Virus record (IMG/VR): IMGVR_UViG_3300031994_000017
Coordinates: 58,023-122,022 of that record
Direction: 5' to 3' (one strand)
Origin: a virus
Taxonomy: Duplodnaviria > Heunggongvirae > Uroviricota > Caudoviricetes
DNA: 64,000 nucleotides
The notes under the pieces are model-generated. The model did no database searches. It was not told where the DNA came from and worked only from the letters and a program-made list of their open reading frames with translations. How positions within the stretch are numbered: position 1 is the stretch's first letter; every line of letters begins with the position of its first letter. This document shows positions 18,689-55,487 of this stretch, one piece after another. A program made the position numbers and the translations under genes.

Positions 18689-18709
18689 AATTTATATTTT
18701 CTCCTTTCA

Positions 18710-28138: not shown

Positions 28139-28446
28139 GCTTTACCATTCTCCTTTATGTATTCAATAGAATTTGCTGCCTCTTCTTTAAAATGTCCAGC
28201 AGCAAATTCTTCAAGAAACCATTCTTTATCTTCAAGGCAAGTAACTTCAATACAATTAACTTCTACTCGGCAGTATGGGCAATAGAGAGCCTTCTTATGG
28301 CATCTGCTATGTTTATGACCTTTTTTCCGCATAATAGGAAAAGTCTTATTGCCGCAATTCATACAATAAAAATCATGCGACTCATATTTAGCTGTTCCTC
28401 TACTCATTTTCTTCTCCTGTTGTAACTTCAAAAATATGTTCATCAA
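28126..28446 (-). CDS. Zn-ribbon protein
   Basis: CMNCG...CPYCR motifs. Confidence 0.4.
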   Translation of the reverse strand: MMNIFLKLQQEKKMSRGTAKYESHDFYCMNCGNKTFPIMRKKGHKHSRCHKKALYCPYCRVEVNCIEVTCLEDKEWFLEEFAAGHFKEEAANSIEYIKENGKAWVK

Positions 28447-29146
28447 AAGTGTCTAAATCAAGAACCACTGTTTTATTTGACCACACACTTCCCATATCAA
28501 GGCATACTTTATGATTATCCGCATACCAAAAAGCACCATCTTCATACACAGGAGGTTCTTTCTGATAAAACTCAGCAACATCTTGCAATTCTTTTACCAA
28601 AAGCGGAATAGGAGTATGTCCATGAACTACAATCACATTTTCTGGTCCAAGCCAACCTTTTGCGAAATCTCTTTTATAACGAGTTCTGTCCCAGAGAAGT
28701 TCATTTTCCCAAGGGAAAGTTTTATTTTCATCATAGAAGCCAGAATGATTAAGAATAATTCTTATTCCATCTTTATTTAGATATTCTGTCTCAAGAATTA
28801 AATCTTTCATAAGAGGATAAATATCAAAACCATTTTCATCAGCAACAATTTGATCGAATGTAATAACTCCGCCATTAGCAAACCAGATAGGAATATTATC
28901 TTGATAATTACCATACTTTACGTCGTTCATGGCTTTAAAGCACATATCTTCATGGTTTCCTTTAAGAAGTTTACAACGAGGATCTTTCATTACTTCTTTA
29001 AAAAGCTTCCAACCATCGGGGCCTCTGTCAATGACATCACCAAGAATATAAAGTGTATCATCTTTATTTAAGAAAGCTTTAATTTGTTTAAAGAGGTCTA
29101 GGCGGCCATGTAGATCCGCGCAAGCATAAACACTCATATTTATCAC
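28400..29146 (-). CDS. PPP-family Ser/Thr (lambda-like) phosphatase
   Basis: GDVIDRG, GNHE and HGHTP. Confidence 0.6.
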   Translation of the reverse strand: MINMSVYACADLHGRLDLFKQIKAFLNKDDTLYILGDVIDRGPDGWKLFKEVMKDPRCKLLKGNHEDMCFKAMNDVKYGNYQDNIPIWFANGGVITFDQIVADENGFDIYPLMKDLILETEYLNKDGIRIILNHSGFYDENKTFPWENELLWDRTRYKRDFAKGWLGPENVIVVHGHTPIPLLVKELQDVAEFYQKEPPVYEDGAFWYADNHKVCLDMGSVWSNKTVVLDLDTFDEHIFEVTTGEENE

Positions 29147-29641: not shown

Positions 29642-29903
29642 CTGTTAAAATTTGATTAGTTAACACTCGTGTACTATGACATACTTTACAAAGACATTTA
29701 TGTCTATCTTCGGTCAAATAAACCCTTTCTTTAATCATTGGTTGACAGCAACATAAATATTTATCTTTTTTAGTGCGGCCACAAGGAATTGTTCTTTCTT
29801 TATGGAAATATTTATACAATAGCCATTGTATATTAGCGAAAAAGTGAACATCTTTGGCGATATAAATTTGAATTGGAAAAATACCATTTTTACTCATTAT
29901 CAA
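29619..29903 (-). CDS. Cys-rich hypothetical protein
   Basis: 94-aa ORF. Confidence 0.3.
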   Translation of the reverse strand: MIMSKNGIFPIQIYIAKDVHFFANIQWLLYKYFHKERTIPCGRTKKDKYLCCCQPMIKERVYLTEDRHKCLCKVCHSTRVLTNQILTDDNPFGW

Positions 29904-30717
29904 AATCCTCTTTTACAGAAATTTTCATAATTTGATAAGCAACGTCATCAAAAAGCTCGTCTACTGCGGAATTTACTTTTTCATTTTTGTGGGCTTTAAC
30001 AAATTTATCACACTTTTCGTGAATATTTGCATAAGTTGTATTTGCAATATCTCTTGCTTCGTCAAGTTCAAAACAACCTTTTTTAGCAGCAAGAAGGTAT
30101 TCAGCTTGATTGCTCACCAAACAATCACCATACGGTTCTCCTGCAAGGTACCTATCAAGATATTCTGAAACCCGCAAAAGATGATGCAACTGCTTTGGGT
30201 CATAACCATATTTTTCAATCCAAGCCATGCGAGAGGGGTAATGGTGCTCCATAGCGAAGTATTTTTCACTAGCAATACCCATCATAGATTTTACGCTACG
30301 AACAGGGTCATAATGAGTAATTTCTTCTCTATGCGCCACAAGTCTTTTCCACTGTTCTTCAAAATGCTGGTTTGGCAAGTAAAAATAAGGAGTATAAAGA
30401 ATTTCAAGGAAATTAAGGTTTTGTTTGCGGAAAGTCTGAATATAAAGACGAATATCTTTTAAATCAATATGTTCGTCATTTTCACGAATATGAGTAGTAC
30501 TTACCGGCTTACGTGCAAGAGCAATGTCTTTAAAAGTGGGAGTAACAATACATTTAGTATCTACGTCAGAGTCTTCATAATCAAGACCATAGTTCTGCGA
30601 ACCCTGAAGGAAAACACCGACAATATGTTTCTTGGGAACAAGAGTTTCTGCTTCAAGAACATGTTCCGCTAATCTATTAGTAATCCAATGATTTGTATGA
30701 TAATTCATTAATATCAC
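29890..30717 (-). CDS. Nucleotidyltransferase-fold protein (GS-x9-13-DhD signature)
   Basis: GSQNYGLDYEDSDVDTKC. Confidence 0.45.
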   Translation of the reverse strand: MILMNYHTNHWITNRLAEHVLEAETLVPKKHIVGVFLQGSQNYGLDYEDSDVDTKCIVTPTFKDIALARKPVSTTHIRENDEHIDLKDIRLYIQTFRKQNLNFLEILYTPYFYLPNQHFEEQWKRLVAHREEITHYDPVRSVKSMMGIASEKYFAMEHHYPSRMAWIEKYGYDPKQLHHLLRVSEYLDRYLAGEPYGDCLVSNQAEYLLAAKKGCFELDEARDIANTTYANIHEKCDKFVKAHKNEKVNSAVDELFDDVAYQIMKISVKEDFDNE

Positions 30718-37052: not shown

Positions 37053-38459
37053 TTAAAGTTCAGCAAGTCTATCTTCGTCCATGGTATCAGTTGCGCCACT
37101 CTCTGCCGCAAGGTCGGCCGCAATTCCAGAGAGAACCTTAAAGGAAAAATTCTTATGCTTGTAAGCAGTAAACTTAGGACGATTTACAATGCGAATTACA
37201 ACACCTTCGCGCACATGAGTCTTACCAATAGGGTCAGGGCCATCATAAAATTGTTCAGCAATATCTTTTACATACTCGCCAGGAACAAAGTCTTTTTTAG
37301 TCCAATCATCTGGTTCATCAAGATAACCACGCCACAATACAGGAACACATTTTGCGCCCATTTGTTCGCAACGATAACGCATAAAATCGGGAGTATATTC
37401 AACAACATCTCCATCTTCATTAGTAAAAGTCATGCGATAAACATAGAAATCAGACTGCGGCACAGCTTCTTGAATAACTTTATCAGTATTGGCATCAATC
37501 ATAGCGGAAAGAGGTTTAGGATTACAGCCATAAGAAAATACAGTAGTAGGACCATACTGCTTAGTAAATTTCTTATCAGAAATTTTACTATTCGGAACAG
37601 AAGCCATAATAGGATTACCATCAGTAGTAAAACCTACAATCTCGTAATATACGGTTTCGCCCTTCCAAAGCTTGCCTTCAAAGAATTTAGCATGAGGCTC
37701 GCGGAAAGCATTGCTTCCGTAGAAACCACCATCTTCAAAATCATCAAGAACAACTCGACGAGTACCAGTTACATAACCCCAATCATAAATAGGAGTTCCT
37801 TGCCGACGGAGAATCTTATCCAAAAGAGTGCGCTTATAGCCTTGGAGTTTCGGAAGATAGCCAGTTCGGCCAGAAGTGCCGTGCATCTTCAAGGTAATTT
37901 CAATCTGGTCGCCGGGTTTAAAAGCGTTCATATTATAGACAAGCTGTTCAGTATCTGCGTGCTCTGCGAATAAAGGCGCAATAGGGACAGAGCGCTTACG
38001 AGTTCTATTTCCCTGCCGAGTATAAGTAGAAGAGGAGTGATTACCACGAGGAATATACTTGCGGCAAATCTCATGACCATTTACAATATCAATTTTATCG
38101 CCTACTTCAAACCTAGTTTCGCCAGTGTAAGCAAGACTAATAAGTGGCATAAAAAGTCCTTCAGATTTTTCACCACGCAACTTCATGGCGCGAATATTGC
38201 GCTTTTCCGGATCAAGGTAGCCACCAGCAGGATTACCATTCTCATCCTTGCGCCGCACAAGGTCATTTACCTTACAGTACTCTTCACTCAACTGAAGATC
38301 AATAGGGAAATAAACACCAATATCACCAAGCTGAGTGCTAAGATCTACAATCACATTGTTGCTAAAAATAGTAGCAATTTGAAGTCTATCCGCATTAGAA
38401 TGAGGATGAAGTTCATTAATTTTCACAATATAAGCAACATGTTCGCTCATTTTTATCAC
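37053..38459 (-). CDS. RNA ligase-like nucleotidyltransferase (K-x-H-G) with an N-terminal tRNA-binding OB (Myf-like) domain
   Basis: N-terminus KINELHPHSNADRLQIA...KLRGEKSEGLF; motif I LKMHGTSGR. Confidence 0.45.
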   Translation of the reverse strand: MIKMSEHVAYIVKINELHPHSNADRLQIATIFSNNVIVDLSTQLGDIGVYFPIDLQLSEEYCKVNDLVRRKDENGNPAGGYLDPEKRNIRAMKLRGEKSEGLFMPLISLAYTGETRFEVGDKIDIVNGHEICRKYIPRGNHSSSTYTRQGNRTRKRSVPIAPLFAEHADTEQLVYNMNAFKPGDQIEITLKMHGTSGRTGYLPKLQGYKRTLLDKILRRQGTPIYDWGYVTGTRRVVLDDFEDGGFYGSNAFREPHAKFFEGKLWKGETVYYEIVGFTTDGNPIMASVPNSKISDKKFTKQYGPTTVFSYGCNPKPLSAMIDANTDKVIQEAVPQSDFYVYRMTFTNEDGDVVEYTPDFMRYRCEQMGAKCVPVLWRGYLDEPDDWTKKDFVPGEYVKDIAEQFYDGPDPIGKTHVREGVVIRIVNRPKFTAYKHKNFSFKVLSGIAADLAAESGATDTMDEDRLAEL

Positions 38460-38462
38460 TCC

Positions 38463-39636
38463 TTAATTTTCATTTTTTTCTACTAGTTCTCTTTGATGCT
38501 GAATTGCTTCTTCAACGGTAGTATAGGTTCTACCATCAGTGCAAGTCCATTCAGCATAAGAAAGGGTAAGCATAGATTTAATTTTATTTTTTTCGGTCTT
38601 AGACATACCGGTTTTATAAGTTTCCGCATGAGGATAGGGAATAAGTTTAGACATTTTTACTCGCATCCAACCCTGACCATTCTGCTGTCCTGCTAAAACG
38701 GGAACAAAACAAACCGCAAAAACTGAACTACCTTCTGTGTAAATTTTAAAGACATCAACATCGCATTTATAATCTTTATGCCACATAGTAATAATTTCTT
38801 TAGCCATTTTTATTATTCCTTTCGATAAATATATTTTGCTGCTTCTTCCGGTGTGTAATACACCATTTTCCCGATAGCTTCAGGAATAATAGTAAATTCT
38901 GCTGGATACTCAGAGGACAGTTTTGCTCCCCAATAATTCTGAGCTTCCAAATAAATTAAATAATGTAACTCCTTATTAAATATAGTAATATATTTTACCA
39001 CATATTTAATAACATTATTACCAACAGGGTAAAAAAGTGAGTCACCAGGAGCAATAATTAAATTTACAGTATTCATATTATTTATAAAATGTCTAACTTT
39101 TTAATTTCTTCGGTAGAAGAAATAGGATTTGAAACTTCACTAGCGGACATAATAAGTCTTTTCATTTCATCATACTGCCATCGCACTTGCTCTTGTGCTT
39201 CACTAACTCGCTTGTCCGCCACTTGTTGTGCCGAGGTCAAGAGCATTTGATATTCTTTAAGATTTTCATTATCCTCGCCGCGCACCTTTTCTTTTCTTAA
39301 AAATTTCTTCCATTTACGATAATCTCGCCATGTAAGAAACTTAATAAATTGCGGTTCATCTCCAACTCTAAGATTTTCTTCATTAACTTTGAAATAAACC
39401 GGCATTACAAAATATTTATAGCCATTATCCTTAATTTGGGCCGTTTTCCAACCATCTGGGTCTGCTTGATAAAGAGCAAGCCATTGTGTAAATTTTAAAT
39501 AAGTAGTATTTTCTTCTTTTAAATCACAATCATCGCGCCAAAAATAGCTAGTGGATGGCAGAAAATCATTTTGATAAGTACTTAAACAATTACATTTTTC
39601 ATGAGTTTTATATGAAACAAATTTCATAAGTATCAC
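38463..39636 (-). CDS. Three hypothetical proteins (38463..38807, 38813..39076, 39082..39636)
   Basis: ORF track. Confidence 0.35.
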
Positions 39637-39639
39637 CTC

Positions 39640-39921
39640 TTACTCGGCAGATAATGTAATTCCTTGCTCTTCAAGCTGACTGACTGCCATATAAATCATC
39701 TTTTTGCGACTTCTACTTTGCGTTTTTCGAATAAGACCCATTTTATTTAGTTCAGAAAGGATGCGAGCCATCTTCTGAGAAGAGCGGCCATGTAGAGTCA
39801 TACTTTTACTACAAATTTCTTCAATAGTCAAAGCAACAGGAGATTCTGACAAAACATTCAAAGTCTCAAACTCAAGCATCCGATTTTCAGCTTTTGAACT
39901 TCCTCTATTCCTACCAGGCAT
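39640..39921 (-). CDS. Small winged-helix or DNA-binding-like regulator
   Basis: 93 aa, basic (RKTQSRSRKKMIYMAV). Confidence 0.3.
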   Translation of the reverse strand: MPGRNRGSSKAENRMLEFETLNVLSESPVALTIEEICSKSMTLHGRSSQKMARILSELNKMGLIRKTQSRSRKKMIYMAVSQLEEQGITLSAE

Positions 39922-40002
39922 TTTTATTTTCCCCTTTCTCTTTATCTTACACTTATATTATATCATATTTTTTAAATAAAATCAATAAAAACTCCGGTGT
40001 TT

Positions 40003-41283
40003 TTATTTACCGGAGTTTTTTATTCTTTCCATAGCAGTTTCTAATTCTTCAGCCTTTTGGCGGATATATATATCATTTTTAATTATTTCTTTTCGGATAA
40101 TTTTATCAATTTTATCTGCGCATTTTATAAACTGTGGAATATCCCATCCTTTAGTCACCATGGCCGCGGTGCCGATCCTAATTCCAGAAGCTTGTTTAGG
40201 AGAACGTTTTTCATTGGGAATACAATTTTTATTAACTATAATTCCTTCTGCTTCAAGAGCTTTCTCTACATGACTACCCGATAAATTAGTTTTACTTAAA
40301 TCCAAAAGGAACATATGATTATCTGTCCCATCAGTTACAATATCATAACCCAATTCTTTAAAACGAGAAGCCATAGCATTTGCGCAATTAACAACCTTTT
40401 GGGCATAAGTGGCAAATTCTGGTTTCAATGCTTCTTCAGCGCATATAGCCTTGGCGGCAATAATATGCTGTAAAGGACCACCTTGTGAACCAGGAAATAC
40501 TGCGCTATCAATTTGTTTTGCTAGTTCTGGTCGGCAGAAGATAAGACCACCTCGTGGGCCACGCAGAGTCTTATGAGTGGTAGTGGTGATAATATCCGCA
40601 TATCCAAAAGGAGAGGGATGTACACCACCGGCAATTAAACCAGCGACATGAGCCATATCAACCATAAAGTATGGTTCATAATGAACTTCATAATCATCTC
40701 CATTTGGTAAAGATTCTGAATACGATAACAACGCTTTCTTCTCTTGGATAATATTATAAATCTTTTTATAATCAATAAAACGAGAATAAGCACTAGCTCC
40801 TGCTACTATCAATTGAGGCTTCAAATCTTCAATCTTTTTTGCCAAGTCATCATAATCAATAAAACCATCTTTGTCAAGGTTATAAAAATAAGTATTATAT
40901 AATTTACCAGAAAAATTAACATGGGAGCCGTGCGTTAAATGGCCGCCATTTTTTAGATCCATAGCCAAAATTCTATCTCTAGGTTTTAGTACTGCCATAT
41001 ATGCGGCAAAATTTGCTTGCGAGCCGCTGTGTGGTTGGACATTTACATGATAATCAGTCTTAAAAACTTCTTGCCATTTTTGTTGACAATAATTTTCAAT
41101 TTTATCAACAATTTCACAACCGCCATAATAACGCGCCCCAGGGTATCCTTCCGAGTACTTGTTGGTTAAACAAGACCCCATCGCGCGTTTAATATCTTCA
41201 CTTACAAAGTTTTCAGAAGCAATTAACTAAACAGTATTAGCTTGTCTTTCTTCTTCTTGCTTAATTAAATCAAAAACAATTGA
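40003..41283 (-). CDS. glyA: Serine hydroxymethyltransferase (1 in-frame TAG near the N-terminus)
   Basis: LIASENF, HLTHGS and TTTHKTLRGPRGG. The N-terminus MSIVFDLIKQEEERQANTV[TAG]LIASENFVSEDIKRA runs into the 40003..41181 ORF. Confidence 0.65.
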
Positions 41284-41286
41284 CAT

Positions 41287-42075
41287 TTAATGAGTATCTC
41301 CTTCGTAATAAAAATTAGGGTCTTTTTTAAGCCACCAATCAATTTCGCCTGTTTCCGCGTAGTTATTCCAACGGTCTACAATAGTTTGAAGTGGCTCAAT
41401 ATCAGTATAATACATTTCAACCCCTGGCCGCACTAAACGGTCATCATGATAATGGCCAAAAAGCCAAATTTTCCAATTAGCAGTTTTTTGGACACTATTT
41501 AAAAATTTTTCCATAGTTTTATCTATTTTCTTTTGGTCTATAGCAGATAAAAATAAATCAGTAGGCTCCCACGGCAAAGGGCAAGTATGAGTTAATACTA
41601 AATCTACAGTTAAATTTTGAGAGAAAATAAGAATTTTACTTCGTTCATGTTCATTTAACATTTCATTAGCAAACCAACCTGTTGCTTTTGGGTTATTATT
41701 TTCTTCAGTATATCCAGCTCTAAAAATACGATACCATTTATCAACAGAATATGCTCCCCCAATAGTAAAAGTAATAATACCATTAAAATTATAAAGTCCG
41801 CCATCCATTAAATAACGAATATGCGGAAATTGTGTTTCCATGTAGACATATTCATTTACTTCTGGGTCATACAAGTAAGACATCGTAGGAATGTCTTCAG
41901 GTCGTGCTTCATGATTGCCTCTTAGACAGTAAAAAGTAAATCCTAAATCTTCGGCTTGCTGTTTTAGTTTTTGATCCTTTTTATTAAGATAAAAATTAAA
42001 ACCACAATCTCCTAAACAAATGATAGCTGTTTCTGTTGGATTATATACAAGATGTAAATCAATAAAGCGGTCAAG
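41287..42075 (-). CDS. Metallophosphoesterase (start uncertain; 1 TAG near the N-terminus)
   Basis: VSDLHGKLDRF...LGDCGFNFY...CLRGNHEARPED... continuing into the 41287..41883 ORF (THTCP, GHYH). Confidence 0.45.
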   Translation of the reverse strand, partial: LDRFIDLHLVYNPTETAIICLGDCGFNFYLNKKDQKLKQQAEDLGFTFYCLRGNHEARPEDIPTMSYLYDPEVNEYVYMETQFPHIRYLMDGGLYNFNGIITFTIGGAYSVDKWYRIFRAGYTEENNNPKATGWFANEMLNEHERSKILIFSQNLTVDLVLTHTCPLPWEPTDLFLSAIDQKKIDKTMEKFLNSVQKTANWKIWLFGHYHDDRLVRPGVEMYYTDIEPLQTIVDRWNNYAETGEIDWWLKKDPNFYYEGDTH

Positions 42076-42135
42076 CTTACCATGTAAGTCACTAACCTGT
42101 GACTAGCCAATAACTAATCACAATTCATTCCTCCT

Positions 42136-42432
42136 TTACTTGTAAAATTCTTTACCATAATCAGTAATCCAATATACCTTTTTATTATTTCCATTGTCAG
42201 AACTTGCCGCCATGCCTCTTGAAATCAAAGGCCGCAAAGCTCCAGCAATTTTAGCAGGAGTTACAATAATACCATAATTCTTTTTTGTGAGTCTGCTAAT
42301 ATCATTGGCAGATGAACATCCATAAGTTAGAAGAGTTTGAATAATCATTTCACGCTGTTCGTTCATATTATTGATTTTCTCCTTTATTATTTTTTCTATA
42401 TATATTATAACATATTTTTTTATAAAAAGCAA
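42136..42432 (-). CDS. Small hypothetical protein
   Basis: ORF track; the likely start is the internal MNEQRE. Confidence 0.3.
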   Translation of the reverse strand: MLFIKKYVIIYIEKIIKEKINNMNEQREMIIQTLLTYGCSSANDISRLTKKNYGIIVTPAKIAGALRPLISRGMAASSDNGNNKKVYWITDYGKEFYK

Positions 42433-42491
42433 AAAAATCCTCTTTTTAAAGATTAAAAAGAGGATTTTTTTATTAGTTATCTTTTTATTAT

Positions 42492-44048
42492 TTACTTAAT
42501 ACAACTGTATCTTTCATCGTTAAGCTTATCAAGCATAAGCTCAATACCAGTCTTATTCTTCATAATCTGCTCAAAGATGGAAGCACTCATACCACTTACA
42601 TAAGAAACACTAGGGCCATCATCCAAAATTGTATTTTGACGAGCCTGTACATTCCAATAAATAAGCTTGGGCATTTGATATCCAGCATGATTCCACTTAT
42701 ATCGCATATTTTCCATCATGGTCTTGGTATTATCTGAACGATGATAATAACTATAATAACCACCTCTGGCAGCATCAATTTCCATATCACTAATTACAAT
42801 GATAGAACCAGGAAGATCTTCTTGCGCCAAATGGTTTTTAATAGCAGTATTTAGCACGAGGTCAAAAGCAGCTTCAAGATTGGTATTCTCACAAAGGTTG
42901 GTGGAATAAATTCTTTCTACCTTATCTACAAAATCAACGCCTTCAGTCTTAATTAGCTGGGGAGAACGACTAAAGGAAATATAATTTCCATGGAAAGGAC
43001 CTTTAGCCTTTTCTGCGCAATACAAACCAAGTGAAATTGCGACATTGATAGGGGCCGCAGCATCTGTGCCCCACATAGAGCCAGAAGTATCTACCATAGC
43101 AAGCGCGTTAAGATTTGCTCCATTAAAATAATCTGTAAGATTATCCCAATACTTATTAATCATAAGACGTTCGGTATTATCAAGAGGAATTTCTTCTCGC
43201 CCATACCAACTATAATGACTATGATAAGTAAGATTATAAGCCTTTGCTACAACCTCATAAGGATAAAGATCCTTAGCATTTACTTTAGTGGTAGTATCTT
43301 TAGCGAAATCCGCATAAGACTTTACGTTTTTGTTCTTCATGCGCTCAACATCGTGGCGCGCAAAAGCATTACGATAAATAAAGCCAGCCTTAGAAGGAAT
43401 TTTATCAAATTCAATCTTATCCCACTCATTTGCGCTCATAAGACGTTCAAGCACATTAATACGTTTCCGCAGCACAGACAAAGTCTTACGATATTGCTGA
43501 TGCGTCATATTAAAATAATTCCGAGTTTTATTACCAAGCAAACGACTCTCAGGGCTAGAAGTATTTTCACTTTTCAGCCACTTAGCCAGCAAAGAAGGAG
43601 TCTTACACTGAACATCCAAAGCAAGCTGATGTTTCATCAACTTAAAAGCGTCCTTCTCTACAGGAGTGCCAACAAAGGTATAGAGGTCATCCCATCTACC
43701 ATACAGAGGCACACAATCAAGATTTACGCGTACATCATCGGGATATGCATTTGCGAGCCACTTTGCGCATACGCGCCAAAAACGTCTTTCACCCTGGCCG
43801 CCACGCACATCGCGCAAATAAAACAGACACTTAAGCGCGTAAAGACGATCCTCTTCATAAGCGTTCTTAAAAAGAAGGATAACATCTGCATCACTTCTGG
43901 TCCGATATGCGCCACCAAAAGCAAACATATCATAAACTGCGCTCAAGGTAGACTTATGCGCCAGGCCGCCGTTCTCAGTCAACTTATAATTAGTGTCTTT
44001 AGTCATAGCATCAATAAGCTTACTCATATTTTTTCTCCTTTTTCTCAA
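42492..44048 (-). CDS. Ro60/TROVE-like N-terminal domain plus a C-terminal vWA domain (Rsr-like architecture)
   Basis: 518 aa; MIDAS VDTSGSMWG in the C-terminal third; helical N-terminal region (ALKCLFYLRDVRGGQGERRFWRV). Confidence 0.35.
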   Translation of the reverse strand: MRKRRKNMSKLIDAMTKDTNYKLTENGGLAHKSTLSAVYDMFAFGGAYRTRSDADVILLFKNAYEEDRLYALKCLFYLRDVRGGQGERRFWRVCAKWLANAYPDDVRVNLDCVPLYGRWDDLYTFVGTPVEKDAFKLMKHQLALDVQCKTPSLLAKWLKSENTSSPESRLLGNKTRNYFNMTHQQYRKTLSVLRKRINVLERLMSANEWDKIEFDKIPSKAGFIYRNAFARHDVERMKNKNVKSYADFAKDTTTKVNAKDLYPYEVVAKAYNLTYHSHYSWYGREEIPLDNTERLMINKYWDNLTDYFNGANLNALAMVDTSGSMWGTDAAAPINVAISLGLYCAEKAKGPFHGNYISFSRSPQLIKTEGVDFVDKVERIYSTNLCENTNLEAAFDLVLNTAIKNHLAQEDLPGSIIVISDMEIDAARGGYYSYYHRSDNTKTMMENMRYKWNHAGYQMPKLIYWNVQARQNTILDDGPSVSYVSGMSASIFEQIMKNKTGIELMLDKLNDERYSCIK

Positions 44049-44056
44049 ATGAGTTT

Positions 44057-44787
44057 TCTATTACTAGATAACCAGATATTTTTTATTCAAAATATCTGAA
44101 AAACAATTTATTTTAGATAAATCAGTATAGGGAATTCTGTATAAAGGAATGTTATGAGATAAACAATAATCATTTTTTATTTTATCTCTCATTTGGTTCT
44201 TTGATAAATTAAAAAATCCTTCTTCAAAGTGCTATTTACCATCATATTCTATTAAATATTTTAAATTGTTATTTTCATCAAAAATAGCAAAATCAAAACG
44301 ACATAAATAACCTTTTTCTGTTTTACAATTCTAAAAACTGTATTCTTGTTTAAAAAGAATATTATTTTTTTGTAAAATAGAACTTATCTTTTTTTCACCA
44401 AAAGATTTAATACATCCACAACTTTTACTTTTTCCAGATAACAAAGAACCAATTTCAACATCTCGCTCTGTTCCGCAAGAACATTTACAATGCCAATAAT
44501 AAGAACCAGTAGAGGTTTTTTTATCTGTTCTATATAAAGCAATCCATTCTCCAAATTTCTAATTTGTAATATCTTTTGGCTAAAACTAATTTTTTATTGT
44601 AGTATTTTTTTTAATACAACCACAACTCTTAGTATTATTATTTTTTAAATTAGAACCTAAAACTTCAACTTTATTACCACAATCACACTAACATAACCAA
44701 TAATAACCATGTTTGGAGGATTTTGTTTTATATAAAACTTTTAATTTACCAAACTAACAATTTGCTAAATCTAATGTTTTAGGCATT
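44057..44787 (-). mobile_element. PD-(D/E)xK (DUF559/Vsr-like) putative homing endonuclease with two duplicated N-terminal DNA-binding modules; at least 6 in-frame TAG codons
   Basis: Repeats FGKLKVLYKT...YYWLC[TAG]CDCG and FGEWIALYRTD...YYWHCKCSCG. The C-terminus has YLCRFDFAIFDEN...LIEYDGK[TAG]HFEE. Confidence 0.4.
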
Positions 44788-44841
44788 ATTTTCCTCCTTT
44801 TTTCTATATATATTATATTAAAATTTTTTATAAAAATCAAA

Positions 44842-45576
44842 TTAAAAATCTTTTGTTCCTTTACCAAGATTACAATCTTGGCACAATGTTTGTAGATTTT
44901 CTGGGACAGTTTTTCCACCTTTTGCAATTGGAATAATATGGTCAACATGAAGTTTAACTCCATCCGCTTGTGTACGGCCACAAATTTGACATTTATAATT
45001 GTCTCGTTTCAAAATATCATAACGCAATCCTGCGGTTAATTTTTCTCGTTCTTGCTTTCTATTATCAATTGAATTATTTAAATTTTTTGTGTTATTTTCC
45101 AAGAATTTATCTAAAAAGAAAAAATTTTTTTGTTTTATTGCTTCTAAATATTCATCAGTTCCCCAACTTATAAGGCAATAATACGCTAAAGGATGATTCA
45201 TATCTTCTTGACATAAAACTTTAGAAAAATTTTGATTGTCAACAATATTAAGAAAATCTTTTATTTGAAATTTATGATAAGGAGGAACGTTAAAATAAAC
45301 TACCCCATGTCCTTCTTTTCTTGAATTTGGAATGGTTTTTTGACTAAAATAAATGCGCCAAAAACTATTTGTATCAAAATCTAAGCGACACAATATATAA
45401 GATAATCCTTGATTAGCCAATTCAATTAACCATTTTGAAAAATATTCATTAAAAAAATTATTAGAATCCTGAATCGCTCTTTCTCTTTTTATTTGTTGTT
45501 CTAATTGATATGTTTTTTCTTGCTGTTCTATTGTGGTTTTGGTTAATTCTTGTAATTGACTAACTAAACTATTCAT
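44842..45576 (-). CDS. HNH endonuclease
   Basis: C-terminal YKCQICGRT...HVDHIIPIAKGG...NLQTLCQDCN. Confidence 0.6.
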   Translation of the reverse strand: MNSLVSQLQELTKTTIEQQEKTYQLEQQIKRERAIQDSNNFFNEYFSKWLIELANQGLSYILCRLDFDTNSFWRIYFSQKTIPNSRKEGHGVVYFNVPPYHKFQIKDFLNIVDNQNFSKVLCQEDMNHPLAYYCLISWGTDEYLEAIKQKNFFFLDKFLENNTKNLNNSIDNRKQEREKLTAGLRYDILKRDNYKCQICGRTQADGVKLHVDHIIPIAKGGKTVPENLQTLCQDCNLGKGTKDF

Positions 45577-45616
45577 TTTAATTATTCCTTTATTCTTTAT
45601 TATTATTTAAAAAAAT

Positions 45617-45652
45617 GGACCGGGATACCAGATTCGAACTGGCATCGCAGTC
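45617..45652 (-). pseudogene. tRNA 3'-half fragment (T-arm plus acceptor 3' strand, no 5' partner)
   Basis: Minus-strand GACTGCGATGCCAGTTCGAATCTGGTATCCCGGTCCA. Confidence 0.3.
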
Positions 45653-45657
45653 TTATA

Positions 45658-45746
45658 TGGTGCCGGGGAGGGGATTTGAACCCCCAATCCCTCACGGGCG
45701 TCGGATTTTAAGTCCGATGCATATACCTAAATTCTGCCACCCCGGC
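45658..45746 (-). tRNA. tRNA-Leu(TAA), class II, CCA encoded
   Basis: GCCGGGGTGGCAGAAT...CGGACTTAAAATCCG...GGGGTTCAAATCCCC...CGGCACCA. Confidence 0.7.
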
Positions 45747-45754
45747 ATTTATTA

Positions 45755-46069
45755 TTATCTAATGTTATTTAGATATTCTTCTTCAGTAATTTCTTCCCAA
45801 GTGGTATAGTCAGAAATAGAGTCATAATAATCTTCTCGGTCTTCTTCAGATTCCCAATCTTCATCCCAACCAGTTACTACATACTCATAGGATTCTGCGT
45901 ACTCATAGGCGAAATTATCTGCACAAGATTCAATATAAAAAGGATCAGAATTAATATCTTCTTCTGTGACCATGATATATTCATCCCAGTCACAACCACA
46001 GTAACCATTTCCACCGGATAAATGAAAATAACGCATAATTTTACTCCTTTTTTTATTATCTAGACTCAT
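45755..46069 (-). CDS. Acidic hypothetical protein
   Basis: 104-aa ORF. Confidence 0.35.
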   Translation of the reverse strand: MSLDNKKRSKIMRYFHLSGGNGYCGCDWDEYIMVTEEDINSDPFYIESCADNFAYEYAESYEYVVTGWDEDWESEEDREDYYDSISDYTTWEEITEEEYLNNIR

Positions 46070-46141
46070 TAAAAAACATCTTCTAAAATCCCAAATTCTA
46101 TGATTATTTTTTTAATAAATTGCTGTGTGAGTCTAATTACA

Positions 46142-46217
46142 TGGCAGGGGAAGTGAGGCTCGAACTCACAACCTACGGTTTTAGAGACCGTCGCTCTAGC
46201 CGATTGCGCTATTCCCC
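46142..46217 (-). tRNA. tRNA-Sup(CTA), an amber suppressor: anticodon stem ACGGT/ACCGT with loop CTCTAAA
   Basis: GGGGAATAGCGCAATCGGCTAGAGCGACGGTCTCTAAAACCGTAGGTTGTGAGTTCGAGCCTCACTTCCCCTGCCA. Confidence 0.65.
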
Positions 46218-46276
46218 AATATAAAAACAAGACAGTATATTAATTGCTTTATCCTCTAAGCTAACTTTCCTATTCA

Positions 46277-46345
46277 TGGCGGAAGGTATCGGAATCGAAC
46301 CGATGATACATTAAATAATGTATTTGCTGTAACTGTCTTTATCTT
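46277..46345 (-). pseudogene. tRNA-like 3' fragment with a CCA end and T-arm (ATCGGTTCGATTCCGAT) but no canonical 5' acceptor strand
   Basis: Sequence inspection. Confidence 0.25.
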
Positions 46346-46390
46346 ACATATATATTATATCATATTTTTTTTAAAAAATCAAATTAATAT
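46330..46390 (-). promoter_or_regulatory. Conserved promoter motif (copy)
   Basis: TTGATTTTTTAAAAAAAAATATGATATAATATATATGTAAGATAAAG on the minus strand. Confidence 0.5.
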
Positions 46391-46449
46391 TTTTAATTTA
46401 TAAAACCAAAAGTGAAAATATAATACCTAAATATTATAATTAATAACAT

Positions 46450-46716
46450 TTATTTAGCCAATCAGAATCTTTCCAAGTATAATTTCTAAAGGTAAGTAAA
46501 TTCATTCTTGCTAAATATCGTCCTAAAATATTTTTACCTTTATACATTATGGTTATTTTTTCCCAATATTTTTTAATATATGGATAATCTAAAGCTTTTA
46601 ATACTGGCAAAAATGTATTTATATTATAAGGATCAATAATATTTATTAACTCTTGTTTTGTATGCTCAGTATAAAATTGTTTATTTTTTTTCTAATAATA
46701 CTAATGTTTCATTAAA
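46450..46716 (-). CDS. Small hypothetical protein (2 TAG codons)
   Basis: MKH[TAG]YY[TAG]KKNKQFYTEHTKQELINII... Confidence 0.25.
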
Positions 46717-47521
46717 TAAGTCCTTCAATATATGCTCTATCTTCGGTAAGAATAGGCATTTCATCATCAATATACCAAGGATGACGTGTAATTACAATAC
46801 CATTTTCTGTCTCAGTAGATGCTAAATATCGCCGCACAAAAGAGCCTCTCTTTTCGGGAATTGAATAATCATCCCAATTAATTCCCTTTTGGAAAAGCAT
46901 TTCTTGAATATCTGCTTGAGATTTACCATTTAATTCCTTATGACTGAATTGTGCCTGGCCAGCAGCTTGGATACTATTTCTTGTAGCATCCTTTTGGCGC
47001 CAAATAAAATAATTACAAACCTCTTCTTTAGGAATATTAAATGCTCGCGCATCAAAAGTTGCTCTAAATTGTTTAGGACACCAAAGATTATATTTATCCC
47101 AATAGCGTTCATTATCACCTTCAAAAGAATGTTGTGTCATAGCATCATAAGATTTCACTGTTTCAGCAACTTGGTAATTGAAAACTGCGGTAGCACGTGC
47201 GGCCGCAAGGGTAGTAATCTTTTGAAGATTATAGTCAAACCAAGCATCAGTATCAATATTTTGATAATCAATTAAAAGAAGAGAAATTTCATCACTCTGG
47301 ACATATCCACCAACACAACCTTGAATACCTGCGCAAAGAGATTTACAAGTTTCTTGCATCATACGCATAAAGTCGGCATCAAAGGGTCTATCAAGACCGC
47401 GAGTAAAAGTGTGAAAAGCATTACCATCTACTCGGATGATTACAGGCATACGCCGAGTTAGATAAAATCTATATCGGTTTTCATAGAAGTCTTTCATTCT
47501 ATCGCCAAGAGTATCTTTCAT
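46712..47521 (-). CDS. Thg1-like protein (tRNA-His guanylyltransferase / 3'-5' polymerase family)
   Basis: PVIIRVDGNAFHTFTRGLDRPFDADF matches the Thg1/TLP N-terminal catalytic signature; strong SD (AAGGAGGG). Confidence 0.55.
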   Translation of the reverse strand: MKDTLGDRMKDFYENRYRFYLTRRMPVIIRVDGNAFHTFTRGLDRPFDADFMRMMQETCKSLCAGIQGCVGGYVQSDEISLLLIDYQNIDTDAWFDYNLQKITTLAAARATAVFNYQVAETVKSYDAMTQHSFEGDNERYWDKYNLWCPKQFRATFDARAFNIPKEEVCNYFIWRQKDATRNSIQAAGQAQFSHKELNGKSQADIQEMLFQKGINWDDYSIPEKRGSFVRRYLASTETENGIVITRHPWYIDDEMPILTEDRAYIEGLI

Positions 47522-48039: not shown

Positions 48040-48144
48040 ATATTACAAGACTCCTACTATACTTTGCCGACATATAGTTTTAATAAAAATGGAGGCTATT
48101 AATTTTGCTGTAAGAGTCTTTGTTTGTTAACAAAAATTAATTAA

Positions 48145-50704: not shown

Positions 50705-50730
50705 ATATTAAGCAAGACACTTATAATTTT

Positions 50731-50796
50731 AGAGGGTCGGATTTGAACCGACAATTTCCAATTTTTTAGATTGGCGACTTAACCCTTTGTCTACCC
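50731..50796 (-). pseudogene. Degenerate tRNA-like element (anticodon loop CTAAAAA, weak acceptor stem)
   Basis: Perfect T-arm GTCGGTTCAAATCCGAC, but the acceptor has 2 internal mismatches and no CCA. Confidence 0.25.
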
Positions 50797-50829
50797 AAAA
50801 AATTAAATTTGCTGTAAATGTCTTTAAAA

Positions 50830-51259: not shown

Positions 51260-51264
51260 CTATG

Positions 51265-54930: not shown

Positions 54931-54950
54931 ATATACATACAAGACATTTT

Positions 54951-55024
54951 TCATTGCAGAGGGACTCGAACCCCCAATAATCCATTAATCAGACGGATGA
55001 GTTAACCATTTTCTCTATACATTA
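54951..55024 (-). tRNA. tRNA-Ile(GAT)-like with a weak acceptor stem and no CCA (possibly a pseudogene)
   Basis: Stem TCCGT/ATGGA with loop CTGATTA. Confidence 0.3.
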
Positions 55025-55047
55025 AATTGCTGTAAATGTCTTTATTA

Positions 55048-55133
55048 TGGTACCAAGGGGCAGATTCGGACTGCCGTGACGGCATTATCAGTGCCGCATA
55101 CTAGACCGCTATATGACCTCGGTATATTTCTAG
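55048..55133 (-). tRNA. tRNA-Ile(GAT)
   Basis: Stem CGGCA/TGCCG with loop CTGATAA; acceptor ACCGAGG/CCTTGGT. Confidence 0.55.
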
Positions 55134-55184
55134 GCCCATCTTTTTAGAGTATTGATCTACCAGCTGATCTATTTTCAAAATTAA

Positions 55185-55254
55185 TGGCTTGAAAAGTTGG
55201 AATCGAACCAACGACATATACTTTGTTAAGTATGATTGCTGTATAGGCCTATTA
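55185..55254 (-). pseudogene. tRNA-like element with a good T-arm/acceptor 3' strand and CCA but a non-canonical 5' half
   Basis: GTTGGTTCGATTCCAACTTTTCAAGCCA; no matching 5' acceptor strand. Confidence 0.25.
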
Positions 55255-55412: not shown

Positions 55413-55487
55413 TGGGGCGAAATACCGGATTTGAACCGATACAAACAGAACCACAATCTGTCGTGCTACCTTTACACCAATTACGCC
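55413..55487 (-). tRNA. tRNA-His(GTG) with an encoded G-1 and C73
   Basis: Loop TTGTGGT; 5' GGCGTAAT; 3' ATTTCGC-C-CCA. Confidence 0.55.

Follow-up and report, generated by a model that had tools for sequence, protein, structure and literature searches.

This locus raises the question of why a phage should keep, in and around its own tRNA array, a collection of genes for putative RNA end-repair enzymes. The window, i.e. the whole 64,000 nucleotide stretch analysed here, belongs to a large, gut-type phage in which TAG is read as a sense codon rather than a stop, and whose TAG-containing genes are late, lysis and mobile-element genes. A sequence-only reading had recognised a tRNA end-repair toolkit comprising a Thg1-like protein (TLP), an RNA ligase, a Pnk-like kinase and phosphoesterases. 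Each of these families was confirmed by HMMER, and the end-repair interpretation fits domain content, active-site motifs and cassette order in related phages. Beyond that toolkit, RlaP, a third phosphoesterase, a Ro60-like protein and Y-like RNAs were identified (Table 1). The locus probably represents a conserved cassette with which the phage repairs and monitors structured RNAs, tRNA above all, and which is set within its own tRNA array. It is best read as a system that would heal, fill and seal RNA (mainly tRNA), coupled to a Ro/Y-like surveillance particle. Phage kits of this type are already known from comparative genomics: tRNAs, ATP-dependent RNA ligase, Pnk, phosphoesterases, RlaP, Thg1 and Ro/TROVE with tRNA-like RNA have been described as phage counter-measures to tRNA cleavage (PMC7824862, section 3.4.9). 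The version in the window has unusual features.

Table 1. Features of the repair cassette and tRNA array, in window coordinates; H1 to H7 are handle RNAs.
Feature	Coordinates	Strand	Evidence and remarks
Metallophosphoesterase 1 (MPE1)	27079..27648	-	Metallophos and Metallophos_2, about 1e-7; phrog_547, 1e-44
Polynucleotide 5'-kinase (Pnk), T4 Pnk kinase-domain type, kinase only	27650..28138	-	AAA_33, 1LY1, phrog_505
Small CxxC...CxxC zinc-ribbon protein	28126..28446	-	Position between MPE2 and Pnk conserved
Metallophosphoesterase 2 (MPE2), lambda-phosphatase/NinI-like	28400..29146	-	Metallophos, 4.5e-13; phrog_246, 2.6e-32; stop = TAG
RlaP, RNA-ligase-associated Pol-beta nucleotidyltransferase	29890..30717	-	PF10127, 5.8e-8, 33 bits (cut-off 23)
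ATP-dependent RNA ligase (Rnl), divergent DraRnl/NgrRnl (Rnl5)-like	37053..38459	-	PF21189, PF09414, phrog_968; N-terminal OB and nucleotidyltransferase, without C-terminal domain
Metallophosphoesterase 3 (MPE3)	41287..41883	-	phrog_1649, 5.5e-11; adjoins ligase in relatives
Ro60-like protein, DUF2828 helical and DUF7788 vWA domains	42492..44048	-	Pfam, AF2, Foldseek; probable ATG start 44027
H7, short cargo, 5 nt downstream of tRNA(CUA)	46060..46136	-	9-bp closed stem and CACAGCAA; weak R1 match, 24.8 bits
Amber-suppressor tRNA(CUA), reads in-frame TAG	46142..46218	-	ARAGORN; Rfam tRNA, 57 bits; U1.U72 and G73 (Gln-like identity)
H6, YrlA-like, about 10 nt upstream of tRNA(CUA)	46229..46339	-	Rfam YrlA, R1, covariation
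TLP, bacterial type; predicted templated 3'-5' nucleotidyltransferase, tRNA 5'-end repair	46712..47521	-	Pfam Thg1, 4KGK, motifs
H5, short cargo, directly upstream of tRNA-Ser(UGA)	48047..48120	-	Handle
H4, tRNA-like cargo	50714..50824	-	ARAGORN 'tRNA-Phe aaa', without CCA, GC 37%
H3, tRNA-like cargo, 8-nt anticodon loop	54258..54373	-	ARAGORN 'tRNA-?(ttgt)', without CCA
H2, normal-order tRNA-like cargo	54941..55042	-	ARAGORN 'tRNA-Ile gat', without CCA, GC 38%
H1, second YrlA-like RNA, between tRNA-Arg(ACG) and tRNA-Ile(GAU)	55131..55251	-	R1, 85 bits, E=3.5e-15, non-seed; handle
tRNA-His(GUG)	55413..55487 (tRNA body 55413-55486)	-	Encoded G-1 (55487) opposite C73; 7.9 kb from TLP

The Thg1/TLP catalytic N-terminus proposed for the TLP gene was borne out by matches to Pfam Thg1 (HMMER, E=3.8e-26, 92 bits, cut-off 29), to the PHROG 'tRNA-His guanylyltransferase' (1.4e-85) and to the Bacillus thuringiensis TLP (BtTLP, PDB 4KGK; full-length alignment covering both halves, E=2.5e-61). 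Residues D32/G33/H37 and S76-D77-E78 are kept in at least 95% of 26 phage TLPs, in which residues 120-148 form a variable insertion. The window protein thus retains the RxDG and SDE motifs of the bacterial TLPs that repair 5'-truncated tRNAs, but differs from BtTLP in being phage-encoded, in the 2-34 aa insertion and in its location in a tRNA array or repair cassette. A full-text literature search found no characterised phage TLP, and apparently there is none. The TLP gene lies within the cassette, between the Ro-like gene and RlaP/MPE3, in three relatives, and adjoins tRNA(CUA) inside the tRNA array in the window and five relatives. Among 21 more distant TLP loci, a ligase or kinase gene is almost never found within 10 kb and 16 have no nearby tRNA, so that linkage of TLP to the cassette is lineage-specific.

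The ligase had been described as a Myf-type tRNA-binding OB domain fused to a KxHG nucleotidyltransferase. The nucleotidyltransferase and an N-terminal OB module are indeed present, but the OB module is of the DraRnl type (PF21189) and PF01588 (tRNA_bind) is absent from the Pfam matches listed at E<=0.01. Matches to PF21189 'PHA02142 OB-fold' (30.7 bits) and PF09414 RNA_ligase (28.5 bits) both barely exceed the gathering score of 27, and phrog_968 'RNA ligase' is matched at 1.4e-71. Motif I reads T189-L-K191-M-H193-G194, and K191/H193/G194, E273, E418-G419 and K434/K436 are invariant. The predicted structure of the ligase was of insufficient quality for use. The Rnl5 enzymes studied to date act on duplex nicks and are not known to seal anticodon-loop breaks. 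As in DraRnl and NgrRnl, the OB module precedes the nucleotidyltransferase and the protein ends about 30 aa past motif V (PMC1807946); motif I (TxKxHG) and motifs III, IV and V are also shared. However, the window ligase is longer (468 aa versus about 340) and contains insertions and a long linker, and its score against TIGR02306, the DraRnl family (E=1.2e-14, 54 bits, cut-off 151), places it in a divergent clade (phrog_968) rather than among DraRnl orthologues. The N-terminal module of DraRnl-type ligases has been likened to the PheRS-beta B2 OB fold (PMC1807946), and in recoding gut phages this family of ligases is enriched 140-fold (PMC10879173).

The P-loop polynucleotide-kinase-like protein and two phosphoesterases expected in the 27079-29146 region were all recovered. 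The kinase matches AAA_33 (1.6e-16), phrog_505 and the kinase domains of T4 Pnk (1LY1, 2.6e-11; both the GSGKS P-loop and RDE align), CthPnkp and Pnkp1, and is without the HAD phosphatase half of T4 Pnkp. Reading frames 27079-27693 and 28400-29146, both on the minus strand, match Metallophos by HMMER; the former corresponds to 189 aa (27079-27648) in an external gene call. The MPE1 start codon lies 1 nt past the Pnk stop, which makes translational coupling of the two genes probable. MPE1 bears a weak resemblance to ligase-associated PdeM. MPE2, encoded immediately after Rnl in relatives, is equally like protein Ser/Thr phosphatases (NinI) and RNA end-healing enzymes, and is a candidate end-healing enzyme for 2',3'-cyclic-phosphate or 3'-phosphate. 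The position of the zinc-ribbon gene is kept in 15 related loci. Members of the RlaP family add 1-2 NMP onto damaged RNA 3'-OH ends and restore aminoacylation, with RNA as sole substrate (PMC12776372).

Family membership and intact catalytic motifs are direct observations, as is the conservation of gene order and strand. In related phages, of roughly 150-200 kb and several with CUA suppressor tRNAs, one same-strand cassette comprises Y-like RNA, Ro-like gene, TLP where present, RlaP, phosphoesterase, ligase, phosphoesterase, zinc-ribbon, Pnk and phosphoesterase genes. In close relatives RlaP, MPE3, Rnl, MPE2, zinc-ribbon, Pnk and MPE1 form a contiguous block downstream of the Ro-like gene. Of 54 Ro-like loci at least 15 kb long, taken with flanks of up to 10 kb, 31 have RlaP, 28 Rnl, 27 MPE3 (between RlaP and Rnl), 15 MPE2, and 14 each Pnk and MPE1, in invariant order and strand. 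This clustering is not due to chance, since the same arrangement recurs in dozens of related contigs, in which the Ro-like proteins share just 57-70% identity with that of the window. In the window itself the cassette is split by about 6 kb (PurA/PurZ-like, Band7 and other genes) between Rnl and RlaP, by SHMT between MPE3 and Rnl, and by unrelated genes, among them a TAG-rich DUF2726 gene and one for an HNH endonuclease. Distances of tens of kb separate the genes for ligase, TLP and DUF2828 in cultured Bacillus phages. Such dispersion would suit unrelated accessory "moron" genes that form no functional unit and have gathered in a variable region around tRNA arrays. We regard this as highly improbable, given the order and strand preserved over such divergence, the probable translational coupling of Pnk and MPE1, and complementary functions that match experimentally established heal-and-seal pathways.

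The neighbours nucleoside 2-deoxyribosyltransferase, PurA/PurZ-like and SHMT could instead indicate that ligase, kinase and phosphoesterase act on DNA or RNA:DNA hybrids, in sealing 3'-ribonucleotide nicks, repair of replication intermediates or nucleotide metabolism, with their closeness to tRNAs being incidental. [quoted passage not shown] Nevertheless, the cassettes of most relatives lack the nucleotide-metabolism genes, which resemble insertions, the phage encodes a separate NAD-dependent DNA ligase, and the conserved partners (Ro60-like protein, Y-like RNAs, RlaP (PMC12776372) and TLP) are RNA-specific. A role on DNA thus appears quite unlikely, and repair of RNA is preferred.

The Ro60-like protein matches DUF7788 (5e-39) and DUF2828 (1e-29) in Pfam, with no TROVE match at E<=0.01, and contains a DxSxS MIDAS motif (D320-T-S-G-S324) in which DTSGS is invariant. 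With its AF2 model (pLDDT 72), all of the top 10 Foldseek matches in the PDB were Ro60 structures (9L5Y, 2NVO, 1YVR and human Ro60 among them; E 4e-6 to 1.4e-3, full length), at 12-13% identity to Ro60.

Putative RNA partners were found in the tRNA array, as seven previously unannotated, tRNA-mimicking small RNAs with a common covarying stem and ACAGCAA "handle". Two are YrlA (Y RNA)-like and three are CCA-less "imperfect tRNAs"; three of the four CCA-less, AT-rich tRNAs, earlier thought imperfect in the sense of defective, are therefore cargo of a conserved handle-RNA family. The handle pattern occurs seven times in the window against 0.08 expected, always on the gene strand, and in Ro-like loci 32 times on the gene strand and never on the opposite one. 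H6 consists of outer stem, ACAGCAA, V hairpin, T-arm, 7-bp acceptor-like hairpin and D-arm; in the YrlA-like modules the T-arm precedes the D-arm, a circular permutation of the tRNA order. H6 scores 28.5 bits against Rfam YrlA (gathering score 69) and 108 bits against our own model R1, of which it is a seed member; non-seed copies score 70-106 bits, and sub-threshold YrlA matches were obtained in the window, two related loci and Bacillus phage Thrax1. Structure and covariation were observed directly, with 96% of cells paired in seven Y-like sequences versus 31-45% in slid controls and compensatory changes at 16/22 pairs. So was the position of the RNA beside the Ro-like gene: the 42 matches in 80 Ro-like loci all share the strand of the Ro-like gene, and 41 lie upstream of it, three at a distance of 32-42 nt from its start codon. 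In cultured Bacillus phages, too, Y-like RNA and handle precede DUF2828, the protein there having only about 37% identity. Since the Ro-like gene sits in or beside the tRNA array, association of the RNAs with Ro is not fully separable from association with the array. In bacteria and phages, YrlA RNAs adjoin Ro60 orthologues (PMC4201824).

The array comprises 31 tRNA calls in the window by ARAGORN and 29 by Rfam, separated by spacers of 3-11 nt; 27 tRNAs have encoded CCA, with well-formed acceptor stems and ordinary leaders. The tRNA-His gene said to adjoin the toolkit does encode G-1 opposite C73, but lies 7.9 kb from TLP, outside the interval in which it had been placed. With G-1 encoded, TLP is dispensable for making tRNA-His by the eukaryotic route. 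The tRNA(CUA) gene is beside TLP, with H6 and H7 on either side. Its U1.U72 and G73 are kept in four phages while the remaining stem covaries, which marks the mismatch as a selected Gln-type identity feature; its interpretation as damage was rejected on these grounds. This tRNA is essential for reading the in-frame TAG codons of the phage. Reliance on its own tRNAs, including a suppressor for TAG-containing genes, provides a plausible selective reason to protect them.

The enzymes might alternatively serve biogenesis rather than damage repair, by maturing the phage's own array transcripts: TLP would correct imprecise RNase P 5' ends in packed arrays or keep G-1 of tRNA-His, and kinase, phosphoesterase and ligase would process or join handle RNAs or permuted modules. 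The handle RNAs lie 4-11 nt from the adjacent tRNA and must be released via tRNA processing, the YrlA-like modules are permuted, RNase P cleaves M. smegmatis YrlA, which also acquires CCA (PMC4201824), and TLP adjoins tRNA(CUA) in the array of the window and five relatives. Such a role is nonetheless unlikely, as the 27 well-formed tRNAs need no unusual maturation, the permuted modules have neither anticodon stem-loop nor bulge-helix-bulge motif and could not be cut and rejoined into tRNAs, and RlaP and Pnk-type enzymes have been characterised on damaged ends.

For the preferred damage-repair reading, enzymatic steps, substrate identity and Ro-handle interaction are all proposed by analogy with known family biochemistry. 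A tRNA would be broken, either through spontaneous damage or by a ribonuclease of the host or of a competitor, leaving 2',3'-cyclic-phosphate or 3'-phosphate and 5'-OH ends. At least one of the three metallophosphoesterases would strip the 3' phosphate and the T4-type kinase would phosphorylate the 5'-OH. Where nucleotides were lost, RlaP could extend the 3'-OH side of the break by 1-2 nucleotides, and TLP could rebuild a truncated 5' acceptor strand by 3'-5' addition templated by the 3' strand, including G-1 opposite C73 of tRNA-His if lost. The Rnl5-like ligase, whose OB module resembles the tRNA-binding fold of a tRNA synthetase, would then seal the 3'-OH/5'-phosphate nick. The Ro60-like protein would bind the handle (stem and ACAGCAA) of the Y-like RNAs, and the particle may recognise damaged or misfolded RNAs or recruit enzymes via its tRNA-like modules. 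The physiological substrate may be nuclease-cleaved tRNA, i.e. counter-defence, or the phage tRNA set under routine upkeep.

With T4 Pnkp and Rnl1, which counter the PrrC anticodon nuclease in a phage that likewise has tRNAs, the window shares heal-and-seal logic and a homologous kinase domain. Unlike T4, it has three separate calcineurin-type metallophosphoesterases in place of the HAD 3'-phosphatase, an Rnl5-like ligase with N-terminal OB instead of Rnl1, and in addition RlaP, TLP and the Ro-like/Y-like module. Bacterial Pnkp/Hen1 (and Pnkp1-Rnl-Hen1) also combine kinase, metallophosphoesterase and ligase, but the window has these activities on separate polypeptides, and no Hen1 methyltransferase was seen among the window ORFs scanned. 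The Rsr (Ro60)/YrlA systems, i.e. the Salmonella rsr-yrlBA-rtcBA operon and Ro60/Y RNA of D. radiodurans and mycobacteria, have in common with the window the Ro60 fold with vWA MIDAS, adjacent small RNAs with outer stem and permuted tRNA-like module, and genetic linkage to an RNA ligase (PMC4201824, PMC7790460). The window differs in its divergent DUF2828/DUF7788 protein and its ATP-dependent, Rnl5-like ligase instead of RtcB. Its RNAs, far under the Rfam threshold, carry ACAGCAA in place of GNCGAA, and are multi-copy, with varied cargo, within a tRNA array. Finally, the parts list is identical to that of the RNA-repair sets predicted in jumbo phages (Iyer et al. 2021; Burroughs & Aravind 2016; PMC7824862), whereas in the window lineage these parts constitute a defined, ordered cassette whose RNA partners are identified and form a multi-member family.

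The region has all its genes on the minus strand, in a sequence with a GC content of 35%. The other genes of the window include those for gyrase A and B and a NAD-dependent DNA ligase, together with 31 tRNAs called by ARAGORN. The region was compared with 50,697 phage records in a DNA search at near identity, which gave no match, so that the phage has no close relative among these deposited records. An identical sequence is carried by a 150,422-bp ENA metagenome contig, and the relatives with 74–77% amino-acid identity are IMG/VR viral contigs of 150–200 kb. Among cultured phages, those of Bacillus have the nearest relatives of individual proteins, and several of the metagenomic relatives come from human faeces, which makes a Firmicutes-infecting gut phage likely.

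Positions of the cassette genes, RNA elements and TAG-bearing genes in the window and in related phages
Feature	Sequence	Position	Strand	Description
TAG-bearing long genes	window	375–26000 and 44061–44786		4–18 in-frame TAGs
TAG-bearing examples	window	22248–26000, 16103–18691, 9400–10755, 11765–12919, 18716–19852, 375–1028		
MPE1	window	27079–27648		calcineurin-type metallophosphoesterase
Pnk	window	27650–28138		polynucleotide 5′-kinase, 162 aa
Zinc-ribbon protein	window	28126–28446	−	CxxC...CxxC
MPE2	window	28400–29146		calcineurin-type metallophosphoesterase
RlaP	window	29890–30717		RNA-ligase-associated Pol-beta nucleotidyltransferase
Inserted block	window	~30.7–37 kb		PurZ-like, Band7 and unknown genes
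PurA/PurZ-like gene	window	32499–33641	−	
Rnl	window	37053–38459		ATP-dependent RNA ligase
MPE3	window	41287–41883		metallophosphoesterase
Ro-like gene	window	42492–44048		DUF2828/DUF7788 protein, 518 aa
DUF2726 gene	window	44061–44786	−	TAG-rich; repeated CxCDCGN/CxCSCG motifs
HNH endonuclease gene	window	44842–45576	−	
CCA-bearing tRNAs (27)	window	45.6–57.8 kb		
YrlA-like handle RNA	window	~46221–46330		between TLP gene and tRNA(CUA)
TLP	window	46712–47521		Thg1-like protein
"tRNA-Ser tga"	window	51196–51270	−	75 nt, GC 43%, CCA-less
tRNA-Ile(UAU)	window	54377–54471	−	95 nt
Second YrlA-like handle RNA	window	about 55130–55252		
tRNA-Met(CAU)	window	57725–57799	−	A1/C72 mismatch
Handle RNAs enclosing AT-rich, CCA-less "tRNAs" (three)	window			Phe(AAA), Ile(GAU), 8-nt-loop species; ARAGORN and Rfam calls
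Short-hairpin handle RNAs (two)	window			
CUA tRNA	related contig L003	11272–11365		94 nt, with insertion
Group-I-intron-like match	related contig L003	11445–11811		after the CUA tRNA
Weaker Y-like matches	Bacillus phage Thrax1	3567–4025 and other inter-tRNA gaps		several, unannotated
Weaker Y-like matches	Bacillus phage FADO	762–4025		several, unannotated

The Thg1/TLP identity that the sequence-only reading had proposed for the TLP gene is correct, since Pfam, PHROG and structure-database searches agree on it. Pfam Thg1 (PF04446), with a cut-off of 29.2 bits, matches at 92 bits (E=3.8e-26), and the PHROG match reaches 1.4e-85. The B. thuringiensis TLP structure 4KGK is matched at E=2.5e-61, whereas eukaryotic Thg1 structures give 5e-10 to 8e-5. 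The Thg1C profile scores 19.8 bits, under its cut-off of 26.3. Residues D32 and D77/E78, the metal-binding carboxylates of the RxDG and SDE motifs, are identical to those of BtTLP in the alignment, and these carboxylates are kept in at least 95% of 26 diverse phage TLPs. By sequence, the protein thus belongs to the bacterial TLP clade and not to the eukaryotic G-1-adding Thg1 clade; its predicted activity is templated 3′-5′ nucleotide addition to tRNA 5′ ends. The tRNA-His gene does encode a G-1, opposite C73, but it lies 7.9 kb from the TLP gene and not next to the toolkit as had been stated.

Similarly, the ligase indeed fuses an N-terminal OB module (PF21189, residues 9–106, 30.7 bits against 27) to a KxHG nucleotidyltransferase (PF09414, residues 186–442), but the Myf-type tRNA-binding domain claimed for it found no match to PF01588 (tRNA_bind; Myf/Trbp111/PheRS-B2) at E<=0.01. 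The N-terminal module of DraRnl has been likened to the B2 OB fold of PheRS-beta (PMC1807946), which explains that earlier assignment. Motifs I, III, IV and V (K191xHG, E273, E418-G419 and K434xK436) are invariant among 31 homologues, residues T189, K191, H193 and G194 correspond to T163, K165, H167 and G168 of DraRnl (residues from PMC1807946), and the protein ends 32 aa past K436, without a C-terminal domain. TIGR02306, the DraRnl family, is matched at E=1.2e-14 and 54 bits, far under the equivalog cut-off of 151, in an alignment spanning only profile positions 4–177 of 341. By sequence, NgrRnl is matched only marginally in the PDB (E about 0.04–0.1), and the AlphaFold model has a pLDDT of 51. 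For one class of phages that recode, a 140-fold enrichment of a DraRnl-family ligase has been reported (PMC10879173).

Profile searches also upheld the kinase-like protein, which is of the T4 Pnk type, and the two phosphoesterases, MPE1 and MPE2, of the 27079–29146 region. Pnk matches the T4 Pnk kinase (1LY1) at E=2.6e-11, with its P-loop GSGKS and its RDE, which holds the catalytic Asp/Arg, aligned to GSGKS and RDD of T4. It corresponds to the kinase half of T4 Pnkp and lacks the phosphatase half: the protein covers phrog_505 positions 1–147 of 295 and has no fused HAD-family 3′-phosphatase domain. Three protein genes were added by a scan of the neighbourhood, namely RlaP (PF10127, 33.2 bits against a cut-off of 23), MPE3 and the Ro-like protein; PHROG scans of the other ORFs within and near the array yielded no further tRNA enzymes. 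In relatives RlaP sits one to two genes upstream of Rnl, and members of its family restore lost 3′ nucleotides of RNA (PMC12776372). In many relatives, a gene for a small zinc-ribbon protein without family assignment is conserved between those for MPE2 and Pnk; the protein may belong to the cassette as an uncharacterised component.

In close relatives, the genes for RlaP, MPE3, Rnl, MPE2, the zinc-ribbon protein, Pnk and MPE1 are contiguous and on the same strand after the Ro-like gene, with TLP a few kb upstream. A survey of 80 viral contigs with a Ro-like homologue at 57–70% identity included 54 loci of at least 15 kb, in which RlaP was found 31 times, Rnl 28, MPE3 27, MPE2 15, and Pnk and MPE1 14 times each, within a 10-kb flank limit that clips many cassettes. 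Order and strand were constant, and TLP lay between Ro-like and RlaP/MPE3 in three loci. Mere co-location of these genes is a weaker explanation given this conserved order and the RNA-specific partners discussed below. Linkage to TLP is lineage-specific and not universal, since more distant TLP-carrying phages rarely have ligase and kinase within 10 kb of it. The arrangement in the window is a derived, interrupted version of the cassette, with PurA/PurZ-like, Band7 and other genes between Rnl and RlaP, and SHMT between MPE3 and Rnl. The inserted block with the PurZ-like gene is absent from most relatives. The PurZ-like gene matches the PHROG "2-aminooxy adenylosuccinate synthetase" and has a weak match to PurA as its sole PDB match; neither DatZ nor MazZ was recognised. 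If it were truly PurZ, a 2-aminoadenine (Z) genome would be implied. The HNH endonuclease and DUF2726 genes, which separate the tRNA cluster from the Ro-like gene, probably represent a mobile insertion within the cassette.

The top 10 Foldseek matches in the PDB for the structure model of the Ro-like protein (pLDDT 72) are all Ro60, full-length, with probability 1.00 and TM scores of 0.36–0.51; they include proteins of Thermus phage phiLo, D. radiodurans (Rsr), Xenopus and human, and are followed by isolated vWA domains. The model thus points to a Ro60 fold, with a helical-repeat ring and a vWA domain whose MIDAS DxSxS motif (D320-T-S322-G-S324) is invariant in 35 homologues. At the sequence level, Pfam (E<=0.01) lists DUF2828 and DUF7788 only, with no TROVE domain, and a PDB sequence search gave no Ro60 match. 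At least 705 deposited phage genomes carry a DUF2828 homologue (Escherichia 120, Mycobacterium 95, Salmonella 77, Vibrio 56, Listeria 54, Staphylococcus 42, among others), and almost all of these homologues bear the annotation "hypothetical" or "DUF2828". The modelled fold suggests that these proteins are Ro60 relatives and that the annotation gap is widespread.

A permissive Rfam scan gave a full-length YrlA match (RF02553) beside the TLP gene, and similar ones in two relatives; YrlA matches score 28.5–45 bits, below the gathering score of 69. A covariance model seeded on these three copies recovered further copies outside the seed at 70–106 bits, one of them a second copy in the window. Over seven distinct sequences, the paired cells amount to 96%, compared with 31–45% when the partners are slid, and 16 of 22 pairs show compensatory changes. 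This Y-like RNA, which is encoded beside a homologue of Ro, has the architecture of YrlA, and covariation supports it. It consists of an outer stem, a V hairpin, a T-arm (GGUUCGAUUCC), an acceptor-like hairpin of 7 bp and a D-arm. YrlA has a Ro-binding motif, GNCGAA(N)G, that is not found here; the position is taken by an invariant ACAGCAA, or ACAGCUA in Bacillus phages. In the 80 Ro-like loci, all 42 Y-like matches with E<1e-5 share the strand of the Ro-like gene and 41 lie upstream of it, three RNAs being 32–42 nt from its start codon; many are directly 5′ of tRNA-Gln(UUG) or a CUA suppressor. From this genomic association, the Ro-like protein is predicted to bind Y RNA. Thrax1 (69 bits) and FADO (44 bits), two cultured Bacillus phages whose Ro-like proteins are only ~37% identical to that of the window, carry the RNA in unannotated tRNA-array gaps upstream of DUF2828, with the same handle (AAAGAC..ACAGCUA...GUCUUG). 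The array of FADO at this place is itself unannotated in the record, and Rfam finds ~17 tRNAs there. Permuted tRNA genes matured by the ligase were considered for the YrlA-like elements and rejected, as these have neither an anticodon arm nor a bulge-helix-bulge motif. Theta (HDV-like) ribozymes, which have been described beside suppressor tRNAs (PMC10879173), were rejected in view of the T- and D-arm features and of the lack of any Rfam ribozyme family at threshold.

The outer stem with (A/G)CAGCAA, here called the handle, occurs seven times in the window, always on the gene strand, against 0.08 copies expected by chance. Its stems consist of 8–9 perfectly paired bases with sequences that covary between copies, and each handle RNA lies 4–11 nt from a neighbouring tRNA, two of them bracketing tRNA(CUA). 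In other loci, 32 closed handles are on the gene strand and none on the opposite strand, and other phages have three more handle-flanked, AT-rich, CCA-less tRNA-like calls. The MAFFT alignment of the three window elements with tRNA-like cargo was too poor for a second model. The "imperfect tRNAs" that had been thought perhaps to need repair are instead mostly a distinct class of RNA, since handle stem and motif enclose three of them. This suggests that some of the "odd tRNAs" reported by tRNA finders in phage arrays are Y-like RNAs.

Other oddities of the array were also noted. A fourth CCA-less call, "tRNA-Ser tga", has a G.G mismatch and neither long variable arm nor handle, and abuts tRNA-Asp. 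A (U)AUAU stands before most of the CCA-bearing tRNAs, and UAUA or UAA comes behind their encoded CCA, with spacers down to 3 nt; these flanks could represent a processing signal or simply be AT-rich spacers that have U at −1. The very long extra region after the anticodon arm of tRNA-Ile(UAU), unusual for a tRNA-Ile, may be an insertion or intron-like element. In the related contig L003, one CUA tRNA of 94 nt has an insertion, and the group-I-intron-like Rfam match following it scores 46 bits against a gathering score of 50. The tRNA-Met(CAU) scores only 29.1 bits on the Rfam tRNA model and may be an initiator-type or aberrant tRNA.

When TAG is read as sense, short ORFs fuse into long genes, one of 1,251 codons with 18 TAGs; others are structural or tail-fibre-like, or encode PhoH/PIN, amidase-SH3 endolysin and GIY-YIG endonuclease proteins. 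Pfam domains (PhoH, PIN, Amidase_2, GIY-YIG and DUF2726) span TAG sites, and the external gene call for the DUF2726 gene reads through eight of them. The toolkit genes have no internal TAG, and MPE2 only terminates at one. Nine "TAG-terminated" genes were considered as evidence against recoding; this was rejected, as each of these TAGs is a sense codon inside a longer gene. Recoding of the code-15 type, in late, lysis and mobile genes, would fit the pattern. Gut phages are known to have TAG-to-Gln recoding and suppressor tRNAs (PMC10607447, PMC9523058), and the conserved U1.U72 and G73 of tRNA(CUA) suggest a Gln-type identity. Editing of this U1.U72 mismatch was rejected as the primary role of TLP, as the mismatch is conserved while the stem covaries. 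Since long genes carry in-frame sense TAGs, tRNA(CUA) is essential for late gene expression, and the findings suggest that TAG-recoding phages may invest in protecting their suppressor tRNA.

The best-supported explanation of the cassette is a putative pathway to heal, fill and seal broken structured RNAs, chiefly tRNAs, each enzymatic step being predicted from family biochemistry. Phosphoesterases and Pnk would mend RNA ends, RlaP would put back lost 3′ nucleotides and TLP lost 5′ nucleotides by templated 3′-5′ synthesis, and the Rnl5-like ligase would close the nick, with a Ro-like/Y-like particle serving in recognition or scaffolding. A purely biogenetic role and a role in DNA or hybrid repair are both weaker when set against the RNA-specific partners and the conserved gene order. 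For an RNA repair pathway, the data are compatible both with counter-defence against nucleases that cleave tRNA and with routine upkeep of the phage's own tRNA pool.

It is tempting to speculate, although we consider it rather unlikely, that the handle is the binding site of the Ro-like protein, by which the phage displays varied tRNA-like modules as scaffolds or decoys. These would be permuted YrlA-type modules, normal-order cloverleaves with anticodon loops, and short hairpins. As scaffolds, they would bring tRNA-binding repair enzymes (TLP, OB-ligase and RlaP) to a Ro-centred particle; as decoys, they would soak up host nucleases that target tRNA. As two handle RNAs bracket tRNA(CUA), the system might in particular safeguard this suppressor, on which the TAG-recoded late genes depend. 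If this were true, RNA repair and surveillance would be linked to genetic-code switching, and a Ro/Y-RNA-like particle would be a common, unannotated phage organelle, given the spread of DUF2828.

How phages counter defences that cleave tRNA is an active topic, in which, to our knowledge, only T4 Pnkp/Rnl1 is understood mechanistically; we know of no phage biochemistry for a TLP, an Rnl5-like ligase or a DUF2828 Ro-like protein. The present locus offers all three in a defined, ordered cassette, with RNA partners identified. As culturable Bacillus phages carry the same RNA and protein, the hypotheses are directly testable, for instance in FADO, which can be grown on B. subtilis and has a TLP as well. 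Systems of this kind have already been described in comparative genomics: jumbo phages were reported to have these components, Thg1 and a ROT/TROVE protein together with its tRNA-like RNA partner among them (PMC7824862, citing Burroughs & Aravind 2016), and YrlA RNAs beside Ro60 orthologues were reported for bacteria and phages (PMC4201824). What appears to be new in comparison is the defined cassette order with an integrated TLP, the evidence that DUF2828/DUF7788 proteins are Ro60-like, the divergent, multi-copy family of handle RNAs with varied tRNA-like cargo within tRNA arrays, and the setting of a TAG-recoding phage.
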